In this document: positions 15,390 through 20,511 of the stretch, in pieces
Position numbering within the stretch: position 1 is the stretch's first letter
How the letters are laid out: each line of letters begins with the position of its first letter
Source of the DNA: Parcubacteria group bacterium CG11_big_fil_rev_8_21_14_0_20_39_22
Lineage (GTDB): Bacteria; Patescibacteriota; Minisyncoccia; Phycocordibacterales; GCA-002787175
Assembly: GCA_002787175.1 (NCBI GenBank)
Contig: PCWC01000066.1
Location: forward strand, 1 to 29,799
Length of the DNA: 29,799 bases
Direction of reading: 5' to 3'
The notes under the pieces: model-generated
Database searches by the model: none
What the model saw: the letters and a program-made list of their open reading frames with translations, nothing else
What the model was told of the DNA's origin: nothing
Made by a program: the position numbers and the translations under genes

Positions 15390-15468
15390 TCTTTTAGTTT
15401 AAGACGGAGGACGTTTTAATACAAGGAAGAAAATAAGTTTTAGCTTTCAGGTTTTATCTGTTAGGAAG

Positions 15469-15583
15469 AGGATAGGTGTTAGCTTATAGGTTTTAGCTTT
15501 TAGGGAAAACATGGAGCGTGTAACATAGAACGTGTAGCGTATAACATGTAACACGAAAAGAGAGGGGATAAAATTCACCTAAT
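15469..15583. repeat. Heptamer-rich intergenic repeat, copy 2 (inverted relative to copy 1)
   Basis: Reverse complement matches 12388-12510, including an identical core CTCTCTTTTCGTGTTACATGTTATACGCTACACGTTCTATG. Confidence 0.85.
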
Positions 15584-15824
15584 AAAATTTCAAATAATAA
15601 AGTAAGAAAAACAGAGTCCGTATTTTTAGGATTAGTCCGCCGTCACGGATTTGTAGATTGTCTCCATTCGGAAGATCTCCCGTAAGGGGAGAATTTCATT
15701 GGTAGATTAGGACATGTTCTTTCGTTTGGAAATTAAAAATCTAAAACTACGGCAACCTGGTTGCCTATGTTTTGATATTTTCCGTAAAATTTGAGGTTAG
15801 TAAGAGGCAGGAGTCGGCTGTGTT

Positions 15825-15850
15825 CCTCCGTAGCTTTAGCGGAAGGGAGG
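15825..15850 (-). repeat. REP-like palindromic repeat
   Basis: Minus strand CCTCCCTTCCGCTAAAGCTACGGAGG shares the core CGCTAAAGCTA(C/T)GG with 19146-19173 and 24687-24716. Confidence 0.7.
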
Positions 15851-15903
15851 GGTTTATATGGCTTCCATATTTGAGGATTGAAAATTGAAAATTATCCTCT
15901 CGT

Positions 15904-15960
15904 GTTACACGCTACAAGTTACATGTTACATGCTTTTGCGTTACAAGTTACAAGTTCCAC
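15904..15960 (+). repeat. Degenerate heptamer tandem array (GTTACAN)
   Basis: gttacac gctacaa gttacat gttacat gcttttgc gttacaa gttacaa gttccac. Confidence 0.85.
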
Positions 15961-15974
15961 GATATAATTGAAAT

Positions 15975-16355: not shown

Positions 16356-16367
16356 CTTATGACTGAA

Positions 16368-17333
16368 TTACTGGATAACATCCTCAATTAATCTTCTAAC
16401 TCGTGCTCCGATCTTGTAGGTATTCCCATGTTTGCACAATCCCAAATACGACGATACATTCTTTTCATTTACCCTCATAAACATCCGCCGTTTCGTCACC
16501 GTCCGCAAAACGCGATGTGTTGGAAAATGCACCCAACCGAGGAAATCCACGCTGGAGGCAAGCGTCCGTATGTAAACCTTATCGGGATGAAGCGAAAGAT
16601 AAAGGTCATTTGATAGAAAGTCTCCCATCTTCCTCAATCGCTCCGAAAGGTAGCGCTTGTCTTGCGAGAAAATCACAAAGTCATCAGCGTAGCGTATGTA
16701 ATATTTCACTTTGAGCTTGTGCTTCACGAATTGGTCAAATTCATTCATATAGATGTTTACCAAAAGTTGCGAGGTGAGATTGCCAAGAGGAAGTCCTTTG
16801 CCTTCGCTCGTATGAAAACTGTGGGTAACATTCTCCAAAAGCCGTAAGATATCCGTGTCTGCGATATGCTTCTCCAAGATTTTGATTAAAATGGAATGGT
16901 CAATACTGGCAAAAAACTTTCGAATGTCGCATTTGAGAACATACACGGTCTTGGTGTGATTAAATGACGCGCTCCTTCCAAAATCCCGAAAGCGGTCTAA
17001 CGCTTTATGTACCCCTTTCCCCTCTCTACACGAATACGAGTCAGAGATGAATTTGGGGTCAAAGAACGGATAGAGCACTCGGTGTATAGCGTGGTGCAAA
17101 AGCCGATCTCGCACGCTCGCCTTGTGAATGTCGCGGGGCTTTGGGTCGGAAATTTTGAAGTGTTTGTAGGAGCCGTGGCGGTAGGTTTTGTTGCGTAGGT
17201 CGTTGTGAAGCATGCAAATGTTCTCACCAAGATTAAGAGCAAACTCGGCGACATCCGGCTTGTTCTTCTTGCCCGGCAAAAATTCGTTCCAGGCGATATG
17301 CAAATTTTTGAGCGATATGATATTGTCGTACAT
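16368..17333 (-). CDS. DGR reverse transcriptase (321 aa)
   Basis: KPRDIH...RDRLLHHA, KCDIRKFF.SIDH, DGR-type GLPLGNLTSQ and catalytic YIRYADD; no maturase/HNH domain; adjacent avd, TR and VR. Start set to ATG 17333 because the longer ORF overlaps avd antisense. Confidence 0.96.
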   Translation of the reverse strand: MYDNIISLKNLHIAWNEFLPGKKNKPDVAEFALNLGENICMLHNDLRNKTYRHGSYKHFKISDPKPRDIHKASVRDRLLHHAIHRVLYPFFDPKFISDSYSCREGKGVHKALDRFRDFGRSASFNHTKTVYVLKCDIRKFFASIDHSILIKILEKHIADTDILRLLENVTHSFHTSEGKGLPLGNLTSQLLVNIYMNEFDQFVKHKLKVKYYIRYADDFVIFSQDKRYLSERLRKMGDFLSNDLYLSLHPDKVYIRTLASSVDFLGWVHFPTHRVLRTVTKRRMFMRVNEKNVSSYLGLCKHGNTYKIGARVRRLIEDVIQ

Positions 17334-17354
17334 TATCCTTAATTTTTTAAAAAA

Positions 17355-17738
17355 ATGACAAGTAACTCTCTCTCTCTCTCTCTTAAATTTCCGGCAGTGA
17401 TTATGAAGATGAAGGAAGCATACCAATTCTGGCTTGCTATTCACCGCAATTTCCCAAGAGTAGAGCGAATGGGTATCGGGCAAAAGATTGAGAATAATTT
17501 TCTCTCGCTTTTGGAGATAAGTTTTGGAGCGGTCTATCTGCCTCCGGAGACAAAGGTGGTACAGCTTACGAGAGCGATCACCCATCTTGATACTCTACGC
17601 TTTTTTATCCAACTTGCGTGGGAAAGTAAACTCATCCCGATGGAGAAATATACCACGCTCATAGAGCAACTCCACGAAGTTGGACGGCAAATTGGCGGAT
17701 GGAAGAAAGGTCTGGAGCAAAAACTCCCGCGGAGATAG
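17355..17738 (+). CDS. avd: DGR accessory variability determinant (Avd, four-helix bundle)
   Basis: 127 aa with FPRVERMGIGQKIEN, LDTLRFFIQLA and EVGRQIGGWKK; sits between RT and TR on the opposite strand. Confidence 0.9.
   Translation: MTSNSLSLSLKFPAVIMKMKEAYQFWLAIHRNFPRVERMGIGQKIENNFLSLLEISFGAVYLPPETKVVQLTRAITHLDTLRFFIQLAWESKLIPMEKYTTLIEQLHEVGRQIGGWKKGLEQKLPRR
17366..17383 (+). repeat. (CT)9 microsatellite in the 5' coding region of avd
   Basis: AGTAA-CTCTCTCTCTCTCTCTCT-TAAA, encoding N-SLSLSL. Confidence 0.95.
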
Positions 17739-17744
17739 CGGGAG
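17724..17744 (-). other. Hairpin 3' of TR (spacer/terminator-like), antisense to the avd 3' end
   Basis: Minus strand CTCCCGC-tatctcc-GCGGGAG followed by TTTTT; spans the avd stop codon on the other strand. Confidence 0.65.
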
Positions 17745-17752
17745 AAACAATG

Positions 17753-17875
17753 AGTTTCGGGAGAACGAACCGATTACGGTTCTCGGCATTCCAAACGTTC
17801 TCGTTCGAGAGCGGATTCACGTTCGCCTTGCGGTTACCATCCGCGTTCCGATTCGCGTTCACGACGAAGAATTTG
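17753..17875 (-). ncRNA. DGR template repeat (TR, 123 bp)
   Basis: Ungapped alignment to 18218-18340 (offset 465) gives 106/123 identity; all 17 mismatches are at TR adenines; 11 in-frame AAC/AAT codons. Confidence 0.98.
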
Positions 17876-18202
17876 TGTGATAAACCATCCGTAGCATAAC
17901 TCGCCAAATCATGACGAAATGCGAATTTTTTGGGACATAGAAGTCCGCCAGTTTATCACACCAACTGATTGTTTTTTTAATTTTTGAAAAAATACATCCA
18001 CTCTCTTGCAAGACACTTTGTATCAAGGATACGTGTCCGACAAAATTCTCAAATGCATTCTTACACAAACATGTCACCGAAGTATTTTTACCACGATGTT
18101 ACCCATGAATGCTTTTTTATTATACAAAAATCCCTCCAACACCACAAAACTAATTTTGCAAAGTGTCAGAGGGATTGAGAGACAAAGGGTCAGAAGAGCT
18201 AA

Positions 18203-18217
18203 GTAGCCGAGGGCTAC
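18203..18217. other. Short hairpin/cruciform at the VR 3' end (candidate retrohoming cis-element)
   Basis: GTAGCC-gag-GGCTAC overlapping the target stop codon; absent after TR. DGR target recognition generally uses such a hairpin downstream of VR. Confidence 0.55.
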
Positions 18218-18864
18218 AGTTGCGGGAGAACGAACCGACGACGGTTCCCGGCAAACCAAACGCCCTCGTCCGAGAGCGGATCCACGTACGCCTTGCGGTC
18301 ACCATCCGCGCGCCGACACGCGTACACGACGAAGAATTTGCCATCCGATTTTCTTTTAACAAGGAACCGGAACCCTGCCCAACCATCCCCGCGGAGATAT
18401 TTCTCCGCTTCCCGTTCAAAAAACAGGACGATTTGGTGCTGGGTCAGACAGAGTCGCTCCAGTGGCACACCGTATCCGTCATAGATTTGACGGGATTTTC
18501 CATCGCGGATTTGCTCATCCACGACCACTTTCATCTCGAGAGTTGGTTCGTCGGGGACATTCAGTCCCTGATTGACGAAATCCCCGTCAATGAAATTCGG
18601 GAACACGTCTAGTGCACCCGCGATGGTGCGGGAGCCGTCGGTCTCGGGAATAACAACAGGTTCCGTGGAGAGTCGGCGGACAAACGGAATCGGCTTGATT
18701 TCGGCGTTGCCGTCCATAACATCCAAGACTGACGAGAGCAGTCCCGGAGTATCGGCTAAACGCTTGATTCTCTCCCCTGTCCAGTTACTTTCACGGTTAC
18801 CTTCACGGCGAAACGCCAACTTCAGCTCATTCGCCAATCCAACATCGAGCATTAGATCGCTCAT
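18214..18864 (-). CDS. DGR target protein (216 aa) with a hypervariable C-terminus, probable C-type-lectin-like fold
   Basis: The C-terminal 41 codons are the VR; AAGGA SD upstream; no obvious signal peptide or TM segment. The fold is inferred from general DGR biology. Confidence 0.9.
   Translation of the reverse strand: MSDLMLDVGLANELKLAFRREGNRESNWTGERIKRLADTPGLLSSVLDVMDGNAEIKPIPFVRRLSTEPVVIPETDGSRTIAGALDVFPNFIDGDFVNQGLNVPDEPTLEMKVVVDEQIRDGKSRQIYDGYGVPLERLCLTQHQIVLFFEREAEKYLRGDGWAGFRFLVKRKSDGKFFVVYACRRADGDRKAYVDPLSDEGVWFAGNRRRFVLPQL
18218..18340 (-). repeat. DGR variable repeat (VR)
   Basis: KFFVVYACRRADGDRKAYVDPLSDEGVWFAGNRRRFVLPQL versus TR-encoded KFFVVNANRNADGNRKANVNPLSNENVWNAENRNRFVLPKL. 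Confidence 0.98.
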
Positions 18865-19053
18865 AGTATTTCCTTTTGGTTTTGCAACAGAGTCACTATG
18901 ACATAGTTGCGGTTTCAGTTTACCCCGAGTTTCCTCGAGGGGTTTATGCTACGAACCCTCAGTGGTCATAACCAAAAAATGCCTATTTATAAGCCCCTTT
19001 TGGCTATGACCACCTGCAAATCATTTTTCAAAGTACCTCACTTTCCTATCTCT

Positions 19054-19081
19054 ATTATACACGAATTAGTAGGTTTGTCAA
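19054..19081 (-). promoter_or_regulatory. Consensus sigma70-type promoter of the DGR target gene
   Basis: TTGACA (19081-19076), 16-nt spacer, TATAAT (19059-19054); implies a leader of about 180 nt. Confidence 0.75.
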
Positions 19082-19145
19082 GGTCTGTTTTGTTTCACCT
19101 AATTTGAACACTACTCCCCGCTCGAGCCAAAGCTACGATAGACAA

Positions 19146-19173
19146 GCCCGCCTTCGCTAAAGCTACGGCGGGC
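19146..19173 (+). repeat. REP-like palindromic repeat
   Basis: GCCCGCC-TTCGCTAAAGCTAC-GGCGGGC, preceded by a degenerate copy (GCCAAAGCTACGA, 19126-19138). Confidence 0.75.
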
Positions 19174-19377
19174 AAGCAAAACTCCCCCGCCAAATGTCCG
19201 TACCTAAAACAGACTCCGGTAACCCCTAATACTGGATGTTATCTTCTCCTTTCCTCTCGGTATTCTCCCTTTCTTTTTTCGGGTGTCCTCCCTACAAGGG
19301 AGGTGCTGAGTCCTCGAAGCGGAGGGTGTTGTCTTTTTCTTTCCTCTTCTTTCCCCCTACCAACTAAAACCTAACAA

Positions 19378-20511
19378 CTAAAACCTATTTCTTAGAGCTT
19401 CAATACCGGACAGAGTGCCGTTGGCGAGAAAGTCGAGCATCGCACCGCCACCAGTCGATACGAAAGAAAAATTATCTTCAAGTTCAAGAGTTTGAAGAGC
19501 TGCTACAGTATCGCCACCACCGACAATCGAGACGGCATCGCTTCTCGCAATCGAAGCAGCCAGTTTTTCCGTCCCACCATAGAAACCTCTTTCATAAAAT
19601 CCGAGAGGACCGTTCCACAATATAAATTTCGCTCCACTTATAATGTTTTTAAGATTCGCTAATGTTTCAGGACCAGCATCTCTTATGTAATCTTGCTTTT
19701 CTATAGAGTCAATTTTTTTGACCGTAACCCTACCATCACTTTCAACTAATGCATCCTTTATGGTGACAATATTTTTGGCTTTCATAATTTTATCGATACC
19801 AAAATCCGAACCTGAAACCTTTGAATTTCCAACTTCAAGACCCGAAGCTTTTAAAATGTCGTTAGACAAAGCACCGCCAACAAATACAGTATCGGCACGC
19901 GAAATAAATTTCTCGACAAGAGGCAACTTGGTTTCAAATTTGGCTCCACCCAAGATAAAAACAAAAGGATGTTTTGGATTGAAAGCTTCGCTTAGATGAC
20001 TTATCTCATCTTTGAGTAAAAAACCTGCGTAGTGTGGCAAAAGCTTGGGAACCTTAACTACCGAAGCGTGTTCCCGATGACAAACAGAAAATGCGTCACC
20101 TACATACAAATCGACAAGCGAAGCAAGGTCGTGAGCAAAATCGTCTTTGTTTTGTTTCTCTCCAGGCCAGAGTCTTACATTTTCAAGCAAAACTACCGAA
20201 CCTGGACTAACCTTTGACAAGGCCTCCCCCGATGATTTTAAAGTAGAGGCTTTTATAACATTATAGTAATCTTTTAAAAGATTATAGACTGGCAAAATCG
20301 GTATCGGCTTCTTGTCCTCATCTTCCAAATGAGTTACCAATAGAATTTTTGCTTTTTTGTTGATAAGAAAATCTATGGTCGGTTTACTTTTCCTAAACCT
20401 AAAGTCATCCCGCACACGATCTCCTTCGGTCTGCATATTAAGATCGAGTCGTAGTAAGACCTTTTTACCCTCCAAGCTTATATCATCGCTTAAAAATGGT
20501 AGATCAAGCAT
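19378..20511 (-). CDS. pgk: Phosphoglycerate kinase
   Basis: VLLRLDLN, LLENVR, DAF...HR.HAS, ILGGAK, WNGPLG.YE, GGGDT and STGGGA. Confidence 0.97.
   Translation of the reverse strand: MLDLPFLSDDISLEGKKVLLRLDLNMQTEGDRVRDDFRFRKSKPTIDFLINKKAKILLVTHLEDEDKKPIPILPVYNLLKDYYNVIKASTLKSSGEALSKVSPGSVVLLENVRLWPGEKQNKDDFAHDLASLVDLYVGDAFSVCHREHASVVKVPKLLPHYAGFLLKDEISHLSEAFNPKHPFVFILGGAKFETKLPLVEKFISRADTVFVGGALSNDILKASGLEVGNSKVSGSDFGIDKIMKAKNIVTIKDALVESDGRVTVKKIDSIEKQDYIRDAGPETLANLKNIISGAKFILWNGPLGFYERGFYGGTEKLAASIARSDAVSIVGGGDTVAALQTLELEDNFSFVSTGGGAMLDFLANGTLSGIEALRNRF

Follow-up and report, generated by a model that had tools for sequence, protein, structure and literature searches.

Where would the signals that start and stop cDNA synthesis lie in a DGR that has no spacer between its template repeat (TR) and its reverse transcriptase (RT) gene? 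The question concerns DGRs of architecture B3, TR-(avd)-RT, which was defined for CPR DGRs by Wu et al. 2018 (PMC5758913). They are the commonest DGRs in Patescibacteria, a phylum itself enriched in DGRs, and in the literature searched their priming without a TR-to-RT spacer is unexplained. Here we analyze one such locus in a window of 29,799 nucleotides (the whole of the stretch of a Parcubacteria contig, PCWC01000066.1, that was studied). The element is of a known kind, and as a DGR the locus adds one further active example. Its unusual part is a conserved folded RNA 5' of the TR in which the signals for priming and for stopping seem to lie, and it is this leader RNA that matters more than the DGR itself.

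The retroelement and its target protein

The locus is very probably a chromosomal DGR of the CPR type with architecture B3 (target with variable repeat (VR), TR, inverted avd, RT), active in the sampled groundwater populations. The first-pass annotation had described a complete DGR with RT, Avd, a 123-bp TR and an in-frame VR, belonging to a class already known; the Pfam matches and the repeat alignment bear out all of these components, and architecture B3 is indeed catalogued for CPR (PMC5758913). The gene order, TR-(avd)-RT with an avd gene of opposite orientation, is the one that defines B3.

The RT gene occupies positions 16368-17333 on the minus strand and encodes 321 amino acids. Its reading frame is open back to 17585, which had been taken as the start, whereas homology begins at Met 17333; the call of intact RT and avd genes stands. 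The protein matches Pfam RVT_1 (E 2e-26) and contains the motifs LGNLTSQ and YADD, fitting the DGR-clade motif 4 (I/L)GxxxSQ and YxDD. Its best solved relative is a 328-aa reverse transcriptase, 8ub7_A (E 2.5e-39, compared with 7e-18 for group II intron RTs), which we take to be the Bordetella bRT, and its tblastn matches include Bordetella phages. As for the RT relatives, whose phylogeny had been proposed as a check, the closest are CPR DGR RTs in the same gene order, with 44-68% identity to 19 CPR loci. These loci share RT, Avd and gene order, all 19 have avd in the inverted position, and 80-100% of their TR/VR mismatches are at A.

The avd gene (accessory variability determinant; 17403-17738, plus strand) is inverted and divergent from RT. 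It had been correctly recognized but given a start at 17355, while the family match begins at Met 17403. Avd matches Pfam bAvd PF22296 (E 1.2e-14, 55 bits with a cut-off of 40) and NCBIfam DivGenRetAVD (E 7.5e-18, 64.8 bits, under the 80-bit cut-off of that model); the latter match spans profile positions 6-104 of 104 from residue 2 of the Met-17403 start.

The TR (17753-17875, minus strand, 123 nt with 33 adenines) and the VR (18218-18340, minus strand) form an ungapped 123-nt direct repeat. The VR comprises codons 176-216 of the target, that is, the last 41 codons of a 216-aa reading frame at 18214-18864 on the minus strand, and is in frame as claimed. The adenine signature described earlier holds in every detail: all 17 mismatches fall among the 33 minus-strand TR adenines (hypergeometric P = 3.9e-12), 10 of the 11 AAY codons are changed in the VR (to Y, C, R, D, Y, D, D, G, F, and R, with N207 unchanged), and the codon alignment contains both GAG to GGG (E206G) and AAA to CAA (K215Q). 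The estimate of 15^11 peptide variants from the AAY codons comes to 8.65e12 when recomputed. Directly after the VR, and overlapping the target stop codon, lies a perfect 6-bp inverted repeat, GTAGCC CTC GGCTAC (18203-18217, minus strand), which resembles the GC-rich inverted repeat downstream of the IMH in the Bordetella and Legionella DGRs (PMC5758913). A clear 14-bp GC-only IMH was not found at the VR end; TR and VR cease to match immediately after ...CCG(A/C)AACT.

A search of the 0.88-Mb assembly for remote VRs, another check that had been proposed, gave none for this TR, in a scan that required a match at non-A TR positions. A paralogue on contig C27 was considered as a remote VR and rejected: it is degenerate and undiversified, with 37 mismatches to the TR, only 16 of them at adenines, and the assembly yielded no TR of its own. 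Contigs C83 and C75 contain RT fragments only, with no TR/VR pair.

The target gene is preceded by a sigma-70-type promoter (19054-19081, minus strand; TTGACA, a 16-nt spacer, and TATAAT) that agrees with the consensus at 12 of 12 positions. In an AF2 model (pLDDT 91.5) the target protein consists of an N-terminal three-helix module (residues 8-50) and a variable domain (residues ~60-216). The latter models as a very divergent C-type-lectin-like fold, with weak scores (Z ~4): the top 50 chains in VIA-align are mostly C-type lectin-like domains, including TvpA (2y3c), at Z of only 4.1-4.2. Foldseek found no match to the model in PDB, the nearest named Atlas cluster is Fib_succ_major at a TM of only 0.36, and among AFDB clusters only unnamed or misnamed CPR proteins matched. 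Sequence and profile searches of the target and 101 family members in Pfam, NCBIfam, and PDB gave no match, and no export signal was found in the protein. Homologues sharing only the N-terminal module (P0003 and P0005) have no TR or RT in their examined DNA. The target family, 1,064 clusters without annotation, is a candidate for structural studies and ligand work that address what is diversified within CPR cells or on their surface.

Variation of the VR between samples

The DGR is active now or has been very recently. The suggestion of recent activity, previously drawn from the mismatch pattern, is supported by other assemblies, which differ from the window only inside the VR and almost only at TR-A sites, while the TR is invariant. 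The comparison was made between samples at the consensus level, using assembled contigs (ENA assemblies and Logan contigs of runs). Of two 5,201-bp regions from other ENA samples, one (L001) has 17 differences from the window, all in the VR and 15 of them at TR-A sites, and the other (L002) has two, both in the VR and both at TR-A sites. In a third assembly (L003), eight of the eight VR differences are at TR-A sites, and the TR is identical in all three. The two exceptions in L001 are adjacent non-adenine changes, 18275 T>G and 18274 C>G, which adenine mutagenesis does not explain. Cluster members differ in the VR only. Contigs from groundwater runs X2-X4 provide further VR versions, with 11 of the 11 listed differences at TR-A sites.

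Two other explanations of this variation were considered. The element could be a fossil, in which TR and VR descend from an ancient repeat duplication and the differences seen in the VR reflect standing strain variation or selection rather than retrohoming. The consensus-only comparison would leave room for this, as would one L003 contig in which the RT reading frame is broken after ~16 codons, yet we regard it as very unlikely: there are 0 differences in 5,078 flanking bases as opposed to 2-17 in the 123 bases of the VR (a chance of ~1e-31), at least six distinct VR versions were seen with nearly all changes at TR adenines, and RT, avd, TR, and the RNA motif are all intact. The truly frozen C27 paralogue has the opposite pattern, diverging by 8% between strains with no change at its VR-like variable positions. 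It is also conceivable, given that Logan contigs end at repeat borders and that C27 carries a paralogous 3' flank, that assembly produced the TR/VR pair or the VR variants artificially, as chimeras of the TR, the VR, and the C27 paralogue. Almost no probability attaches to this explanation, against which stand the window and three independent ENA assemblies that span target, TR, and RT with identical flanks, the reading frame of the VR, kept in all versions, and the non-TR bases in the VR, which match neither the TR nor C27. Public assemblies already contain several natural versions of the VR on a background that is otherwise identical, and this is the main use of the locus as a DGR.

The folded RNA around the TR

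The 340-nt spacer between VR and TR encodes a structured RNA with strong covariation. This leader (17872-18050, minus strand), described by the covariance model R1, adjoins the 5' end of the TR. In the R1 model it contains, all on the minus strand, helix H1 (18045-18035/18014-18004), an A-rich block AAACAAU (17974-17968), a near-invariant adenosine at 17966 (alignment column 148, present in 46 of 47 sequences), the 12-bp helix H2 (17961-17950/17886-17875), 11 pairs of which have changes on both sides, helix H3 (17947-17943/17936-17932), an A-rich single strand (17931-17924), and helix H4 (17923-17915/17903-17895). The 3' strand of H2 ends at the first base of the TR.

The window leader scores 105 bits with R1 (E 1e-19 to 3e-20), and full-length matches were obtained in six loci left out of model building. 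RNAalifold predicts 38 pairs in the leader, 32 of them with compensatory changes. Among 47 R1 hits, 95% of cells are paired, compared with 67.5% in shuffles, although the paired percentages are inflated by the fitting of the alignment (A8) to the model structure; 490 cells are changed on both sides, compared with 126 in shuffles, and none of 500 shuffles reached the observed values; the covariation thus greatly exceeds that of both controls. R1 has hits in 27 of the 151 genomes sampled from the class and in 28 of the 151 from the phylum (~18% of sampled Patescibacteria). In 39 of the 47 hits a TR begins between -5 and +17 nt of the end of the motif, mostly within 3 nt, and in this wider genome sample the motif is followed by the inverted avd and RT in 43 of 47. 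A coding role was rejected, as any open frame crosses the leader in only 18 of 47 copies. The Rfam search with the leader gave no family match, and in the literature searched we found no description of an RNA element upstream of the TR in B3 CPR DGRs.

A candidate promoter of the TR RNA, read from the sequence, is located at 18119-18147 (minus strand; TTGTGG, a 17-nt spacer, and TATAAT) and may drive its transcription. The promoter scan of the window did not report it; in related loci an A/T-rich -10-like box occurs at the matching place of the aligned spacers.

On the 3' side there is no spacer with the priming, stop, and RT-binding elements of the Bordetella type: only an 8-nt linker, one stem-loop, and a U run follow the TR before antisense avd begins, and the covarying helices lie 5' of the TR. 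The linker AUUGUUU (17745-17751, minus strand), just 3' of the TR, is complementary to the A-rich block of the leader (17968-17974), and we propose it as the template strand of a template:primer duplex. This complementarity, which involves the 7-9 nt right after the TR, is short and A/U-rich. It covaries at a fixed register in 37 loci, with a mean run of 7.08 for cognate pairs; permuting the linkers among loci lowers this to 5.61 +/- 0.19, and none of 20,000 permutations reached the observed value. The test is register-restricted and replaced a global RNAduplex comparison of leader and linker, which did not discriminate (cognate -18.1, non-cognate -17.6, and shuffled -19.0 kcal/mol).

A 7-bp GC stem-loop with U5 (17719-17744, minus strand) starts 8 nt after the TR. 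It was matched by the terminator scan and looks like an intrinsic terminator, and it occupies the place that Handa et al. assign to their 'Avd-binding stem-loop'. Of 39 related loci, 38 have a stable hairpin 6-13 nt after the TR, and in 32 of these a T run comes next; the stem sequences vary between loci. RNAalifold gave no consensus on the MAFFT-aligned TR 3' flanks, where the hairpins are misaligned; folding of single sequences shows them.

A possible mechanism and comparison with known DGRs

We lean towards the interpretation that the functional RNA of B3 DGRs, the type to which most DGRs of Patescibacteria belong, is circularly permuted relative to that of Bordetella, namely a self-contained transcript of ~400 nt with an Sp-like domain 5' of the TR and only the Avd-binding stem-loop/terminator 3' of it. 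We propose that a separate minus-strand transcript of ~390 nt, from ~18112 to 17719, would carry leader, TR, linker, and stem-loop, and that RT and Avd would bind the leader-TR RNA. Synthesis of cDNA would be primed in cis beside the block:linker duplex, plausibly from the near-invariant adenosine 17966, the TR would be copied with misincorporation opposite adenines, and synthesis would stop at helix H2. The cDNA would then replace the VR, aided by the inverted repeat after the stop codon, and one face of a small domain, modelled as divergent C-type-lectin-like, could in this way exist in up to ~1e13 variants. If this is true, the limits of the mutagenised region would be fixed at both ends by the two duplexes.

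When the leader is read as a permuted RNA, its Sp-like order would be a primer strand with the priming adenosine, the stop-duplex strand, a short stem-loop, A-minor adenosines, and the RT-binding stem. No permuted DGR RNA was found in the literature or in Rfam as searched.

A possible but less probable interpretation is that the leader is real and is not a permuted Sp. It might instead give proteins a scaffold to bind, act as a regulator, or stabilise the TR transcript, while priming would take place elsewhere, for instance from a read-through RNA antisense to avd or from a nicked 3' end. The function of the leader is deduced from topology only; Naorem et al. (PMC5703328) propose the 3'-OH of nicked template RNA as the Bordetella primer, and Handa et al. 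(bioRxiv 10.1101/2023.10.23.563531), using 100 nt downstream of the TR, found candidate downstream elements, stop duplexes, in many DGRs. Because of these downstream duplexes the antisense-avd RNA may play a role. Against this interpretation, in 32 of 39 loci the stem-loop after the TR leads to a U run and then to antisense avd. Moreover, in the window as in related loci the TR/VR homology is framed to within a few bases by H2 and the block:linker duplex, and the order of elements matches Sp.

A compact unit of RNA, RT, and Avd, ~1.8 kb long and with clear testable pairings, would permit reconstitution, and a covariance model of the leader could find TRs directly in metagenomes.

In its protein-coding anatomy the locus does not differ from the CPR/Patescibacteria B3 DGRs (PMC5758913; clade 2 of Roux et al. 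2021, PMC8144416). It shares with them the order and orientation of its genes, a single target immediately upstream that has the VR at its 3' end, the small size of this target and its lack of transmembrane or known domains, a groundwater CPR host, and a strong adenine bias. With the DGR of Bordetella phage BPP-1 (mtd-avd-TR-brt; PMC6182149) it has in common the RT family, Avd, adenine mutagenesis, and an inverted repeat after the VR, whereas here the avd gene, placed between TR and RT, has the reverse orientation, and the target is not a phage tail fibre.

As in the CLec-fold variable proteins of other DGRs (Mtd, TvpA 2y3c, TaqVP, and AvpA), the variable residues of the target are, in its model, in the C-terminal strands of an alpha/beta domain, and TvpA and many C-type lectin-like domains are its best structural matches over residues 55-216, at a Z of only about 4. 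Unlike these proteins, the 216-aa target carries a module of three helices at its N terminus and lacks FGE-sulfatase and DUF1566 signatures, and it has no detectable sequence or Foldseek similarity to them.

The closest parallels of the RNA are with the Bordetella DGR RNA (PMC6182149; bioRxiv 10.1101/2023.10.23.563531). Both have a stem-loop just 3' of the TR, a duplex of ~11-12 bp closing the TR 5' end, and a primer-type strand, here a putative one, that pairs beside the copied region at its 3' side and terminates near a conserved adenosine. After this strand come the stop strand, likewise putative here, a short stem-loop, unpaired adenosines, a stretch of single strand, and a longer stem. 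The order of leader elements thus matches that of Sp (bioRxiv 10.1101/2023.10.23.563531), but they are 5' rather than 3' of the TR. Further, the TR/VR homology here ends at most 2 nt from the proposed primer duplex, whereas the Bordetella cDNA starts 17 nt inside the TR.

The retroelement and its variation among samples

A repeat search and direct alignment of the window give a single ungapped 123-nt repeat, with the template repeat (TR) at 17753-17875 and the variable repeat (VR) at 18218-18340. On the minus strand the TR copy contains 33 adenines, and all 17 TR/VR mismatches fall on them (hypergeometric P = 3.9e-12), as claimed in the first-pass annotation. The VR is in frame, forming codons 176-216 of a 216-aa ORF (18214-18864, minus strand), where 10 of the 11 AAY codons are altered and two further changes, E206G and K215Q, are found, identical to the list compiled earlier. 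The reverse transcriptase (RT) and the accessory variability determinant Avd are both present, matching Pfam RVT_1 (E 2e-26) and bAvd (E 1e-14, exceeding the curated cut-off), respectively, but the ORF lengths assigned to them, 405 and 127 aa, are too long, because the RT homology starts at the Met at 17333 and the Avd family match at the Met at 17403. The observation of a diversity-generating retroelement (DGR) is thus confirmed, and its interpretation is supported.

Among 60 relatives, 22 have an RT match at E <= 1e-20. The avd gene is inverted and divergent from the RT gene in all 19 fetched loci, and where these contain a VR, the TR lies beside the avd 3' end, the VR is located about 460 nt upstream, and 80-100% of mismatches are at A. 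The TR-(avd)-RT order is architecture B3, which makes up 90% of the CPR collection of Wu et al. (2018, PMC5758913), while Roux et al. (2021, PMC8144416) describe CPR DGRs as members of clade 2, DGRs as enriched in CPR, and their targets as lacking transmembrane or known domains. Since the gene order of the relatives and these published descriptions match, the window DGR is an ordinary member of a class that, as already stated in the annotation, is known.

The 90%-identity cluster of the target contains four full-length versions, which differ solely in the last 36 residues. The DNA of their contigs, each representing one consensus version, was compared with the window. Contigs L001 and L002, from other ENA samples, share 5,201 bases with the window and differ from it at 17 and 2 positions, respectively, every one in the VR (chance probability about 1e-31), with zero differences in the TR, RT, avd, the spacer, and the flanking genes (pgk, HIT, and capA). 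The VR differences coincide with TR adenines in 15 of 17 cases in L001, 2 of 2 in L002, and 8 of 8 in the short contig L003. Three further groundwater runs yielded contigs with other VR versions (11 of 11 listed differences at TR-A sites), and the base at the same VR site differs from run to run. These sequence comparisons bear out the recent activity suggested by the annotation, and as evidence of DGR activity from public assemblies they are unusually direct.

Several other features of these contigs were observed. Beside its 15 adenine-site changes, L001 has two adjacent non-adenine VR changes at 18275 and 18274 (CTC to CGG, L197R). A (CT)9 tract (17366-17383), situated between the starts of the divergent RT and avd genes, varies in length between samples: the window, L001, and L002 have nine units, and L003 has seven. 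It lies 5' of the likely avd start, within the 69-bp RT-avd divergent region, and more likely belongs to the shared promoter/5'-UTR region than to avd codons, as the Avd match starts at Met 17403. Past this tract, the 2.5-kb L003 (sample ERZ27293344; positions 2300-2508, approximately window 17250-17370) is about 85% identical to the window over 70 nt and then divergent, its RT frame ending after about 16 codons; the explanation is either RT disruption in this strain or a chimera at the end of the contig. In two groundwater runs (X1 and X2), a second contig of 483 nt (window 17530-18011) occurs together with the main form at about one third of its depth. Its 45 differences and one insertion are spread over avd, TR, and the leader, and it may come from a related strain or from a second DGR present in these samples.

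Genomic setting, further copies, and the target protein

Two congeneric genomes (loci L030 and L031) have contiguous capA, HIT, and pgk genes, with a HIT-pgk gap of about 100 bp, and the search for RTs in relatives found no DGR RT in either of them. In the window this gap is 3.0 kb (16356-19377) and contains the entire DGR cassette. Therefore, the cassette is a presence/absence difference between these genomes. The promoter 5' of the target gene agrees with the consensus at 12 of 12 positions. The intergenic stretches on both sides of the HIT and DGR block (15424-15965 and 18957-19390) consist of short repeats of 40-250 nt, 75-97% identical, that this genome also has on dozens of its contigs; among them is a 35-nt inverted pair (15431-15465 / 19356-19390).

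The window is one contig (C106) of a 0.88-Mb assembly with 39% GC and 116 contigs. A genome scan for remote VRs, proposed in the annotation as a check and run here by matching the non-A positions of the TR, gave one extra site, the 3' end of a 173-aa paralog on contig C27 (3762-4283), which has about 100 nt of 3' flank in common with the target and is apparently not diversified. Of its 37 mismatches to the TR, merely 16 are at adenines and 21 at other bases, and no TR for it was found in the 116 contigs. Between two strains, the paralog diverges by 8% across the protein, with the VR-like stretch constant except for a 4-residue indel and one substitution, a pattern opposite to that of the DGR target in the window. 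Apparently, it is a frozen copy of the target in which diversification ceased. Fragments of DGR-type RTs were found at C83:3-665 (63% identical to the window RT, truncated by the contig end) and C75:10720-11280 (51%, the C-terminal 170 aa only, adjoining an unrelated ORF), with no TR/VR pair assembled near either.

An exhaustive HMMER search assigned 1,064 clusters (E <= 1e-3, covering residues ~55-216) to the target family, whose main home in the Atlas is Minisyncoccota; the family has no sequence matches in Pfam, NCBIfam, or PDB, and the target lacks both a signal peptide and hydrophobic segments. In the AlphaFold2 model, built from 101 sequences (pLDDT 91.5), residues 8-50 form three helices at the N terminus, and an alpha/beta domain comes next, with the variable codons on its last strands (177-185, 190-196, 210-214) and conserved residues alternating between them. 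Foldseek gave no match of the model in PDB, and among named Atlas clusters, Fib_succ_major comes closest (TM 0.36). The top 50 of an exhaustive VIA-align search are mostly C-type lectin-like domains, among them TvpA (2y3c), a DGR variable protein; every Z is <= 4.2, which is weak alone. A CLec-like scaffold was anticipated for CPR targets by Roux et al. (PMC8144416), and we read the modeled fold as a putative, very divergent scaffold of this type.

The N-terminal 20 to ~50 residues of the target (start MSDLMLDVG.ANELK.AFRR; residues 1-20 at 18805-18864) are near-unchanged in other metagenome proteins of ~200 aa (P0002-P0009), whose C-terminal halves are unrelated and rich in Trp and Cys; no TR or RT was found beside them within their short contigs.

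A leader RNA upstream of the TR

The VR-TR spacer, 342 nt in the window and 314-425 nt in relatives, contains conserved blocks. For 15 loci, RNAalifold predicted 38 pairs, and compensatory changes occur in 32 of these. A covariance model, R1, made from 13 loci (158 positions, 35 pairs), has full-length matches in six DGR loci outside its building set, and matches in 27 of 151 genomes sampled class-wide and 28 of 151 phylum-wide. In the alignment of 47 R1 hits, 95% of cells are paired, compared with 67.5% after shuffling and 40-53% when the partners are slid, and both-side changes occupy 490 cells versus 126, values reached by none of 500 shuffles; as this alignment was fitted to R1, the pairing figures look better than they should. 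In 39 of the 47 hits, the start of an A-biased TR falls between -5 and +17 nt relative to the end of the motif, mostly within 3 nt, and in 43, inverted avd and RT follow the motif. The possibility that the leader is a coding region was ruled out, an open frame crossing it in just 18 of 47 copies.

All elements are on the minus strand. A candidate promoter (18147-18119) is followed by helix H1 (18045-18035 / 18014-18004), the A-rich block AAACAAU (17974-17968), a near-invariant adenosine (17966, present in 46 of 47 hits), the H2 5' strand (17961-17950), the H3 hairpin (17947-17932), an A-rich single strand (17931-17924), H4 (17923-17915 / 17903-17895), and the H2 3' strand (17886-17875), the last base of which is the first base of the TR (17875-17753). 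Downstream are the linker AUUGUUU (17751-17745), a 7-bp stem-loop (17744-17724), and U5 (17723-17719). A stable hairpin is present 3' of the TR in 38 of 39 loci, followed by a T run in 32 of these. The block is complementary to the linker, with pairing that covaries across loci, for instance, AAAUGAAGA:UCUUCAUUU, AAAUGAAGC:GCUUCGUUU, AAAUAAAA:UUUUAUUU, AAACAGA:UCUGUUU, and AAAUCAAAU:AUUUGAUUU. With the register fixed, cognate pairs have a mean run of 7.08, versus 5.61 +/- 0.19 with linkers permuted among loci (0 of 20,000 permutations as high).

The leader region of the window and 12 relatives had no match among Rfam 15 families, and a literature search for an RNA domain upstream of the TR found no description in the papers searched; the survey of Handa et al. 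(bioRxiv 10.1101/2023.10.23.563531) covered TR flanks of just 40 nt on the upstream and 100 nt on the downstream side. Judging by covariation, the upstream domain is real; it is widespread across the phylum and appears to be undescribed.

Comparison with the Bordetella phage DGR RNA

In the Bordetella phage ribonucleoprotein, the spacer Sp is located 3' of the TR. It begins with an Avd-binding stem-loop and a primer strand that ends in A56 and pairs with the TR 3' region; two nucleotides past A56 is a strand of the 11-bp "cPRT Stop" duplex, formed with the segment immediately 5' of the TR, and then a short stem-loop, A80 and A81, the single-stranded "Thumb Ring", and a long bRT-binding stem (bioRxiv 10.1101/2023.10.23.563531). 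The CPR leader has the same series, namely the block, the conserved A, the H2 strand, H3, unpaired A's, a single strand, and H4. Unlike Sp, it is attached to the TR 5' end via the second H2 strand, and the stem-loop alone stays 3' of the TR. By this analogy, the CPR DGR RNA may be a circular permutation of the Bordetella arrangement; we propose that the leader would serve as a permuted Sp, and we infer the function of every element of the CPR RNA. The permutation, if true, would account for the B3 architecture working with avd occupying the TR-to-RT interval, and for the TR/VR homology starting at the end of H2 and stopping 2 nt before the block:linker duplex.
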